From IMG/VR virus record IMGVR_UViG_2671180849_000006: DNA of 4,347 nucleotides. One strand, written 5' to 3'. This document shows positions 1,148 to 1,881 of this stretch, one piece after another. Each line of letters opens with the position of its first letter. Positions within the stretch are counted from its first letter, which is position 1. The notes below the pieces were generated by a model. That model was not told where the DNA came from, did no database searches, and was given only the letters and a program-made list of their open reading frames with translations. Source of the DNA: a virus. Its lineage: Duplodnaviria; Heunggongvirae; Uroviricota; Caudoviricetes. The position numbers and the translations under genes are program-made.

Positions 1148-1155
1148 ATTCACCC

Positions 1156-1185
1156 CACAAAAAAGCCCGCCTGAACCGGCGGGCT
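1156..1185 (-). terminator. Rho-independent terminator downstream of lom (8-bp GC-rich stem, 6-nt loop, T-run on the minus strand)
   Basis: Minus-strand sequence AGCCCGCC-GGTTCA-GGCGGGCT followed by TTTTTTGTGG (plus-strand stem arms 1164..1171 and 1178..1185; the T-run is the complement of 1158..1164). It sits between the lom stop (1212..1214) and the stf start (1147) and abuts the stf ribosome-binding site. Confidence 0.7.
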
Positions 1186-1211
1186 GTCATAACACTGTGT
1201 TACCTGGCTAA

Positions 1212-1811
1212 TCAGAACTTATAACCGACACCCACGATGAAACCGTCAGTGCGCCAGTCGCCACTGCCGGAGCCTTCATAAGCAATATCAATGGCCACGG
1301 ATTCGGTCGGGTTAAACTGCACGCCAGCTCCCCACGCCAGAGACGTGTTGCTGTGGCGACCGTCATCACTTCCGGTCAGCACATCATGCGTTTTCCCCTT
1401 GTTGTCGGTCACCTGCAGATAATCTCCGGAGAAAGTCGACACACGGCTGTAAGACACACCCGCCATCGCATACGCGCTGAACAATTCATTCACGCGCACA
1501 GACGGCCCCGCCATCACGCTGAACCAGCGGTTACGCACGGAATCTTCATGCCAGCGGGTATCGCTGTAACGGGTCAGCTGGCGATTCTTGTCTCCTGCAT
1601 AGCTGAATGACGTCACCAGCCCCAGCGTATCCGTAAACTCATAACGGTATTTCACGTTAATCCCGTTAAGATCATCACTGCCGGGAACGTTGGTCCGGGC
1701 ATGAAGATACCCCGCGCTCAGCGTGGACTGATGTTCAGACGCCCATGCAGGCGCACCGGATACGGCCAGACAAATGGCTGCGGACAAAATGGCGGCATAA
1801 AGTTTACGCAT
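1212..1811 (-). CDS. lom: Lom outer-membrane protein (Ail/Lom/OmpX family 8-strand beta-barrel), 199 aa
   Basis: Complete ORF from ATG (1811..1809) to TGA (1214..1212). The product has an N-terminal signal peptide and ends GINVKYRYE...AYEGSGSGDWRTDGFIVGVGYKF, matching my recollection of the lambda Lom C-terminus, including the terminal aromatic residue typical of outer-membrane beta-barrels. Position between J and stf is as in lambda. Confidence 0.92.
   Translation of the reverse strand: MRKLYAAILSAAICLAVSGAPAWASEHQSTLSAGYLHARTNVPGSDDLNGINVKYRYEFTDTLGLVTSFSYAGDKNRQLTRYSDTRWHEDSVRNRWFSVMAGPSVRVNELFSAYAMAGVSYSRVSTFSGDYLQVTDNKGKTHDVLTGSDDGRHSNTSLAWGAGVQFNPTESVAIDIAYEGSGSGDWRTDGFIVGVGYKF
1740..1811 (-). 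other. Predicted Sec signal peptide of Lom (MRKLYAAILSAAICLAVSGAPAWA, probable cleavage after AWA)
   Basis: Positively charged N-terminus (RK), a hydrophobic core and an A-x-A motif (AWA) before SEHQ. Judged by eye; no predictor was run. Confidence 0.6.
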
Positions 1812-1816
1812 AATTA

Positions 1817-1822
1817 CCTCTC
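1817..1822 (-). promoter_or_regulatory. Shine-Dalgarno sequence for lom (GAGAGG, 5-nt spacer to ATG)
   Basis: Minus-strand sequence GAGAGGTAATT-ATG immediately upstream of the lom start codon. Confidence 0.6.
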
Positions 1823-1830
1823 GCTTTTCT

Positions 1831-1859
1831 GCAATAAAAAAGGCGTCATTCCTGACGCC
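1831..1859 (-). terminator. Rho-independent terminator downstream of J (7-bp stem, 4-nt loop, T-run on the minus strand)
   Basis: Minus-strand sequence GGCGTCA-GGAA-TGACGCC followed by TTTTTTTATT (plus-strand stem arms 1842..1848 and 1853..1859; the T-run is the complement of 1833..1841). It lies in the 70-bp gap between the J stop (1884..1882) and the lom start. Confidence 0.7.
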
Positions 1860-1881
1860 ATTTATTGGGGTTATAAATATT

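Follow-up and report, generated by a model that had tools for sequence, protein, structure and literature searches.

Intrinsic terminators on either side of lom in the J-lom-stf region of a lambda-like phage

The whole stretch of DNA analysed here (4,347 nt, hereafter the window) carries on its minus strand the C-terminal part of J, the gene lom and the 5′ part of stf, and each of the two spacers between these genes holds a hairpin with a U-tract, giving the order J – T_up – lom – T_down – stf. By stem, loop, U-tract and orientation both T_up and T_down are canonical intrinsic (Rho-independent) terminators. The window is probably best regarded as the J-lom-stf stretch of a lambda-like late operon, in which two functional terminators would be read through under Q, would provide insulation in the prophage and would owe their present arrangement to the insertion of lom beside a terminator that already existed. 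Among public sequences, those nearest to it come from the lambdoid phages and prophages found in E. coli, with 98.5% identity to Stx-converting phages over the lom block and 96% identity to phage 434 over the whole window.

Gene layout and anatomy of the hairpins

The tail-tip host-specificity gene J is represented by its C-terminal 821 codons (1882..4347, minus strand, right end open), identified from the open reading frame list and Pfam, with its TGA stop codon at 1884..1882 in the same list. The Pfam domains found in this part are Ig_J, Ig_J_second (two copies), Phage_Tail_Tip (two copies) and Ig_GpJ_C. The next gene in the reading frame list, lom (1212..1811, minus strand), encodes a 199-aa outer-membrane beta-barrel protein of the Ail/Lom family; membership of the Ail family, proposed at first from the letters of the DNA, is upheld by a full-length match to PF06316 (Ail_Lom; residues 1-199 of 199, E-value 8e-119, 395 bits with a cut-off of 23). 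Its Shine-Dalgarno sequence GAGAGG (1817..1822, minus strand), read from the sequence and from the RBS annotation in phage 434, is followed 5 nt further on by the ATG and is kept in 22 of 22 spacer variants. The reading frame starting at 1147 (1..1147, minus strand, 382 codons in the window, left end open) was characterised by translation and Pfam and possesses a phage_tail_N domain (PF08400, E-value 1e-68), an Ala/Ser/Glu-rich segment and collagen-like Gly-X-Y repeats (Collagen, E-value 3e-18), a domain makeup like that of Stf of E. coli lambdoid prophages. Because of the phage_tail_N domain and the collagen repeats it is taken to be a stf-like side-tail-fibre gene.

A separate feature of J is an in-frame tandem duplication of 648 bp (216 codons; 2404..3051 and 3052..3699), the copies of which are about 96% identical and which doubles the Ig_J_second and Phage_Tail_Tip domains. 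In the best matches listed for phages and for 5,426 complete E. coli genomes, the 4,347-nt query is matched in about 3,699 nt and in two to three pieces, and the duplication is missing from every close database relative among these listed matches; in the 15 best genomes, a probe for the contiguous duplication junction was matched in two separate pieces only. Since the listed best matches span about 3,699 nt and the junction probe splits, the duplication looks rare or unique on sequence comparison, and either a genuine unequal crossover of J alleles or an error of assembly could account for it.

T_up (1832..1859, minus strand) lies in the J/lom spacer and has a stem of 7 bp with a 4-nt loop (GGCGUCA-GGAA-UGACGCC, 1859..1842), which runs into six U residues (1841..1836) and then AUUG, the full tail being UUUUUUAUUG; the J stop codon is found 22 nt before it and the lom ATG 24 nt after it. 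T_down (1159..1185, minus strand) lies in the lom/stf spacer, 26 nt past the lom stop codon, and has an 8-bp stem, seven of its eight pairs being G-C, with a 6-nt loop (AGCCCGCC-GGUUCA-GGCGGGCU, 1185..1164), a U-run at 1164..1159 and the tail (C)UUUUUUGUGG. Between it and the stf ATG (1147) are 11 nt, GUGGGGUGAAU, which include the stf Shine-Dalgarno region GGGGUGA (1150..1156, minus strand), adjoining the U-tract and likewise read from the sequence and from the RBS annotation in phage 434. Both hairpins are noncoding, sense-oriented and located 3′ of a stop codon, that of J in the case of T_up and that of lom in the case of T_down. The original prediction had placed two hairpins around lom at 1831..1859 and 1156..1185, both oriented to stop minus-strand transcripts and the second some 10 nt ahead of stf; its coordinates are correct, and the orientation and the short distance to stf agree with those found here.

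The evidence for both structures comes from a terminator scan, folding and the GenBank annotation of relatives, with covariation in addition for T_up. The stem-loops alone have calculated free energies of -11.4 kcal/mol (T_up) and -17.6 kcal/mol (T_down), both stronger than the -8 kcal/mol that had been named beforehand as the limit of a weak stem, and folding in a 46-nt context gives -16.3 kcal/mol (z -4.3) and -19.1 kcal/mol (z -2.4) respectively. Under strict terminator criteria (seven perfect pairs, at least five of them G-C, and at least five T in the next six positions), T_up and T_down were the only matches on both strands of the window; two sites thus stand against a mean of 0.017 in 300 dinucleotide-preserving shuffles. 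A looser built-in terminator scan gave a total that was not significant (7 sites against 4.6 ± 2.3), and its two strongest sense-strand matches were again T_up and T_down. The efficiency of termination at the two sites is one that we infer from these sequence features, and no transcript ends at either U-tract have been reported for the locus in the literature searched.

Other identities considered for the hairpins were set aside. A permissive Rfam search of the whole window gave two sub-threshold chance matches, among them one resembling a Trp leader over T_down (21 bits with a gathering score of 41), and both were rejected. T_up was also rejected as a conserved bidirectional terminator, because the flank which forms its plus-strand tail, AUUUAUU in the window, is CGUAUAU in most relatives.

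Conservation of the hairpins among relatives

The comparison covered 80 IMG/VR loci collected by way of their Stf N-domain, together with 39 loci from genomes, collected by way of Lom. J, hairpin, lom, hairpin and stf follow one another in this order with either of two lom alleles (the 199-aa type of the window and a lambda-like 206-aa type, which share 46% identity) and with no fewer than four C-terminal alleles of J. Lom loci identical to that of lambda were also encountered in many non-enteric assemblies, where they most likely represent contamination with lambda DNA.

The stem of T_up occurs as GGCGUCA/UGACGCC, GGCGCCA/UGGCGCC and GGCACCA/UGGUGCC, together with a U-G intermediate, and as GGCACCU/AGGUGCC with the lambda-like lom allele. 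In a covariation test, for which 15 distinct variants were aligned without gaps, standard pairs were present in 105 of 105 cells, and compensatory double changes were identified at three of the seven pairs (G-C/A-U; C-G/U-A, with one U-G intermediate; and A-U/U-A). The covariation score was reached by none of 500 shuffles, and when the 3′ arm was slid by one to three columns as a control, pairing fell to 25-56%. Stems of unrelated sequence and the same geometry are present at the T_up spot in lambda (CGUCCG-GGAA-CGGGCG-UUUUAUU) and in a Citrobacter prophage (AGCGCUC-AUUC-GGGCGCU-U7). Because of the compensatory changes and the unrelated stems at the same place, chance and mere hitch-hiking are excluded for T_up on comparative grounds, and its structure has been maintained in evolution.

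T_down is near-invariant over 24 spacer variants, lambda having a single one-sided change from G-C to G-U, and because of this near-invariance it gives little covariation of its own. Three loci (L068, L077 and L096) have a non-homologous lom-stf spacer of 151 nt with a different 12-bp terminator, the spacer of P-EibA also being 151 nt in length, and in a Citrobacter locus (L098) the hairpin before stf is kept with a poor U-tract (AUCUUAU). Across the variants, those with non-homologous stems included, a U-tract is kept after the stem, with 5-7 U in the E. coli-type variants and lambda. In view of the functional replacement by non-homologous terminators, chance or hitch-hiking would be an unlikely origin for T_down as well.

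It is unlikely that the hairpins are mainly 3′-end or processing structures of the RNA, which would protect the J and lom segments from exonucleases or make J, lom and stf differ in stability and translation on the long late mRNA, and would not chiefly stop polymerase. The late operon of mEp460 does have further terminator-like hairpins after its capsid protease/scaffold and major tail genes, a pattern compatible with segmental mRNA stabilisation, while the pre-stf hairpin of Citrobacter L098 is kept despite its degenerate U-tract and T_down adjoins the stf ribosome-binding site. However, U residues lie directly 3′ of the stem in every E. coli-type and lambda variant, and a U-tract, which is required for termination and not for stability, is conserved even with non-homologous stems; the two roles are also not mutually exclusive. 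Another explanation, to which little probability is given, would have the spacers kept mainly as recombination linkers at module boundaries, the hairpins being passengers of recent exchange. The J C-terminal, lom and stf alleles assort independently with spacers that stay similar, the 64-nt lom-stf spacer is near-invariant, and from a mosaic border between the window and lambda inside lom, at about 1296, the 3′ end of lom, T_down and the 5′ end of stf travel together. Such a passenger role is difficult to reconcile with the pairing of T_up in all 15 variants by way of compensatory changes, and passive hitch-hiking is inadequate because unrelated terminators occupy the same positions in several relatives, namely lambda, Citrobacter, L068/L077, OS31 and PhiR12_5.

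Assignment of T_down and expression of lom

The moron as described by Juhala and colleagues in 2000 is said to be an insert between adjacent genes, with its own sigma-70 promoter, a downstream terminator, a deviant composition and expression in the prophage. Lom lies between genes which are adjacent in Serratia phage OS31 and Escherichia phage PhiR12_5, both without lom, these being distant comparators with StfN domains 45% and 62% identical to that of the window. In OS31, J is separated from the stf-like gene by 39 nt, the sequence past the J stop codon being AACCCGC UUCG GCGGGUU and a U-run, then GGAGAAAUU AUG; in PhiR12_5, stf is preceded by GCGCAGACCGG GUAA CCGGUACUGCG U7 AUGGGAGAAAUCU AUG. 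Both therefore have a terminator and U-run 9-12 nt ahead of the stf ATG, and T_down, which provides lom with a downstream factor-independent terminator, has its equivalent before stf in phages that lack lom. The composition of lom matches that of its flanks, with a GC content of 55.7% (GC3 62%) for lom, 55.5% for the stf N-domain and 53.8% (GC3 63%) for the J part.

Comparison of the window with lambda in 40-nt windows gives 33-78% identity through the end of J and most of lom, and 88-100% identity from about 1296 through T_down into stf. This mosaic block, comprising the last ~85 nt of lom, T_down and the 5′ end of stf, is common to lom alleles which elsewhere have about 50% identity. Because lom-less phages have a pre-stf terminator and because this block is shared, T_down is better assigned to the J/stf junction, or the stf module, than to a lom cassette. 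The view of lom as a moron-like cassette bracketed by two terminators is thus partly supported: the bracketing stands, and the attribution of T_down to lom went too far, given the terminators before stf in lom-less phages. The GC content of lom is also not deviant.

Several other loci were considered as comparators and rejected. The IMG/VR loci L025 and L050 are rearranged or deleted prophages and not natural lom-less J-stf junctions, one deletion among them ending within the T_down loop. In phage 9g, J and the fibre gene are separated by a reverse-strand lipoprotein gene that has a promoter of its own, and this architecture differs from that of the window, as do those of the Serratia Rovert and Klebsiella KLB5 phages.

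A consensus scan of the lom strand of the window found no sigma-70 site, and a PWM scan that reached 500 nt upstream of lom and 300 nt upstream of stf found nothing above the window-wide background, with no stf promoter between T_down and the stf ATG. The two scans agree with the earlier impression that lom has no convincing sigma-70 promoter. One candidate, TTGAAA-15-TAAATG (1885..1859, overlapping the J stop codon and T_up), drew attention because transcription from it was predicted to begin in the loop of T_up; it was rejected as a lom promoter because it is weak (its spacer measures 15 and position -7 lacks a T) and lacks conservation, being specific to the J allele of the window and missing from most spacer variants. 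A non-consensus or activator-dependent lom promoter is possible. In the literature lom is treated as a prophage-expressed moron (PMC3594210, PMC7067206), and reviews cite Lom as a moron-encoded, prophage-expressed protein (PMC3594210, PMC7067206, PMC8065619). Expression of lambda lom in lysogens was detected in one study (PMC1151598), which cites Reeve and Shaw (1979) for a positive result as well, and was not detected in another (PMC2147009). The lom orthologue of Phi24B, which has a different genomic context, is expressed independently of induction (PMC3342100).

It is very improbable that lom and T_down form a strictly self-contained moron of promoter, gene and terminator, with T_up as the terminator of the J unit. 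This would fit the classical definition of a moron, for which lom has been cited as an example (PMC3594210), and the weak TTGAAA-15-TAAATG match could be counted in its favour. Against it are the lack of a promoter-like site in the consensus scan of the lom strand, the restriction of the TTGAAA-15-TAAATG match to this J allele, the T_down-like terminator before stf in lom-less phages, the linkage of T_down with the stf module instead of the lom allele, and a GC content of lom equal to that of its flanks. With neither a compositional anomaly nor a recognisable sigma-70 promoter, only part of the classical definition applies to lom. A composite of these ideas, held to be distinctly unlikely, would join an ancestral, lom-independent pre-stf terminator and T_up as a swap boundary with a promoterless lom and a 3′ UTR that releases a small RNA. 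The pre-stf terminator and T_up would then act as a portable border for the exchange of J receptor-binding ends, lom and stf alleles; the lysogenic lom message would begin within T_up or shortly after it, lacking the 5′ arm and so escaping termination; and the 64-nt lom 3′ UTR, a hairpin with a U-tail, could become an Hfq-type small RNA. As to RNAs already described, the microRNA-size 24B_1 reported as downstream of lom (PMC4426718) belongs to a different context in phage Phi24B and was rejected for this locus, and the lambda small RNAs PreS, LPR2 and 6S are encoded elsewhere.

Operon context and comparison with known systems

In lambdoid phages, transcription of the late genes, stf included, starts at pR′ and is carried past terminators by polymerase that Q has modified. 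On the preferred reading, that of a Q-dependent late operon with two functional terminators, Q-modified RNA polymerase from pR′ would pass T_up and T_down during lytic growth and J, lom and stf would form one message. Since no promoter is found between T_down and the stf ATG, stf transcripts must pass both terminators, as had been proposed. Because Q, qut and pR′ lie outside the 4.3-kb window, membership of a Q operon rests on homology to complete relatives, and read-through at T_up and T_down is presumed from established lambda biology. In mEp460, one such relative, a Q-type late regulator is accompanied by a late operon of co-oriented genes, in which the J-lom-stf block is found along with five annotated terminators, two of them flanking lom.

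In the repressed prophage, unmodified polymerase would halt at both sites. T_up would keep stray transcription of J out of lom, and T_down would stop lom transcription from entering stf/tfa and furnish lom transcripts with a 3′ end that is both defined and protected. Lom would in this way be insulated from both J and stf in the prophage state, and since no lom promoter was found, this prophage side of the model is without a start site. As to its history, lom was most likely inserted beside a pre-existing inter-cistronic terminator of the J/stf junction, which would leave one terminator on each side; the presence of T_down-type terminators in lom-less relatives is the reason for this suggestion.

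The arrangement of lom between two terminators is ordinary for lambda-like phages and already known, because both terminators are annotated in three GenBank records, JQ182728 (mEp460), OL657226 (434) and MF807953 (Ayreon), where they map exactly to 1859..1833 and 1184..1159, and because lom is a textbook moron. What is added here is the covariation test for the J-lom terminator and the independence from lom of the stf-proximal one, so that lom is better viewed as having been inserted next to a terminator that was already there than as a unit complete with promoter, gene and terminator. Beyond such bookkeeping the significance is small; the result does confirm that real terminators within an operon, and a gene of lysogenic conversion, can be picked out of a prophage tail operon by automated reading.

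Lambda, 434, mEp460, Ayreon, cdtI and the Stx-converting lambdoid prophages share the order J-lom-stf with the window, and lambda and its relatives have spacers of about 70 and 64 nt with one terminator hairpin in each. The 64-nt lom-stf spacer of lambda departs from that of the window only in and next to the hairpin loop, where a few positions differ, whereas its T_up stem is of different sequence, its Lom is the 206-aa protein with 46% identity to the 199-aa type, and the 648-bp duplication in J sets the window apart from lambda and its relatives. Like lambdoid morons such as HK97 gene 15, lom is an accessory gene of the host-benefit type situated between tail genes that are adjacent in some relatives, has a factor-independent terminator downstream and has been reported as expressed in the prophage (PMC3594210, PMC7067206). 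Unlike these, it has neither a recognisable sigma-70 promoter nor a deviant base composition, it is directly preceded by a terminator and not by a promoter, and the terminator that follows it is not tied to the insert. In Q-antiterminated lambdoid late operons, too, late genes are separated by G+C-rich hairpins in the sense orientation, each with a U-tract, which must be read through if the late genes beyond them are to be expressed, and from these the pair in the window does not differ materially.

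The 3′ end of lom and the lom-stf spacer

When the window was compared with lambda in 40-nt windows, most of lom (minus strand, 1811..1212) showed 33-78% identity, while from approximately position 1296, inside the gene, through the lom stop and the terminator hairpin T_down (1185..1159) and into stf (to position 1100) identity was 88-100%. By this comparison a mosaic boundary lies at window position ~1296, and the 3′ end of lom, the terminator and the 5′ end of stf therefore move as a single block. Three of the comparison loci (L068, L077, and L096) possess a different lom-stf spacer of 151 nt, which is non-homologous to the 64-nt type of the window, contains two hairpins and is accompanied by a divergent stf allele. 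The second of these hairpins is a 12-bp terminator (GAAGCCCGUGGC...GCUGCGGGCUU, followed by U7). In P-EibA (AF151091) the gap is likewise 151 nt.

A small A/U-rich hairpin, GUAACA CAG UGUUAU, was also observed within the 64-nt spacer upstream of T_down (window 1189-1203, minus strand) and is kept in nearly all spacer variants. Together with T_down and its U-tail, it may be likened to the 3′ end of an Hfq-type 3′-UTR small RNA; a literature search found no support for such an RNA from the lom 3′ UTR.

At the other side of lom, a weak promoter-like match (TTGAAA-15-TAAATG, window 1859-1885, minus strand) lies across the J stop codon and the 5′ arm of T_up, the terminator hairpin between J and lom. 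A transcript starting ~7 nt past this match would begin in the T_up loop, in which case the terminator could not form. The match is probably fortuitous as a promoter, being weak and not conserved in the other spacer variants.

Repeats in J and stf

The J gene carries an in-frame tandem duplication of 648 bp (216 codons) at window 2404-3699 on the minus strand. A repeat search of the window showed its two copies (2404..3051 and 3052..3699) to be ~96% identical, with the Ig_J_second and Phage_Tail_Tip domains each doubled as a result. Every best phage and E. coli genome match listed possesses a single copy, spanning the window in ~3,699 nt, and a probe for the duplication junction gave only two-piece matches in the 15 top genomes, with no contiguous match there. 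Either a real but rare unequal crossover produced the duplication, or it is an artefact of assembly.

In the stf-like protein (window 60-400, minus strand), collagen-like Gly-X-Y repeats extend over ~115 residues after an Ala/Ser/Glu-rich segment and match Pfam Collagen (E-value 3e-18). At the nucleotide level these appear as the direct repeats D2 and D3, with spacings of 9 and 99 nt.

The J/stf junction in other genomes

Among the lom-bearing genome loci collected, L102-L113 and others have a lom locus identical to that of lambda, in assemblies labelled as Neobacillus, Kitasatospora, Pseudomonas, Shewanella, and Bradyrhizobium, among others. Several lie on contigs of ~48.4 kb with low coverage, and these loci are almost certainly contaminating phage lambda control DNA.

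Three further loci are defective-prophage rearrangements at the J-lom-stf junction. In L050 (2940-3003) an endolysin gene is joined to the 3′ half of T_down, the deletion endpoint lying in the hairpin loop; in L025 (2930-3003) J-lom is replaced by unrelated DNA as far as the lom stop; and L026 has an insertion of ~2 kb between lom and stf.

Serratia phage OS31 (L088, 2461-2503) and Escherichia phage PhiR12_5 (L086, 2455-2503) both lack lom, and each has a strong terminator hairpin with a U-run 9-12 nt upstream of the start codon of its stf-like gene. This suggests the junction terminator to be a conserved feature independent of lom. In the lytic phage 9g (L089, 2157-2500), the J/fibre junction is occupied by another accessory insertion, a lipoprotein gene on the reverse strand, with a bidirectional hairpin on one side and a consensus promoter for the fibre gene (TTGACA-17-TATACT) on the other.
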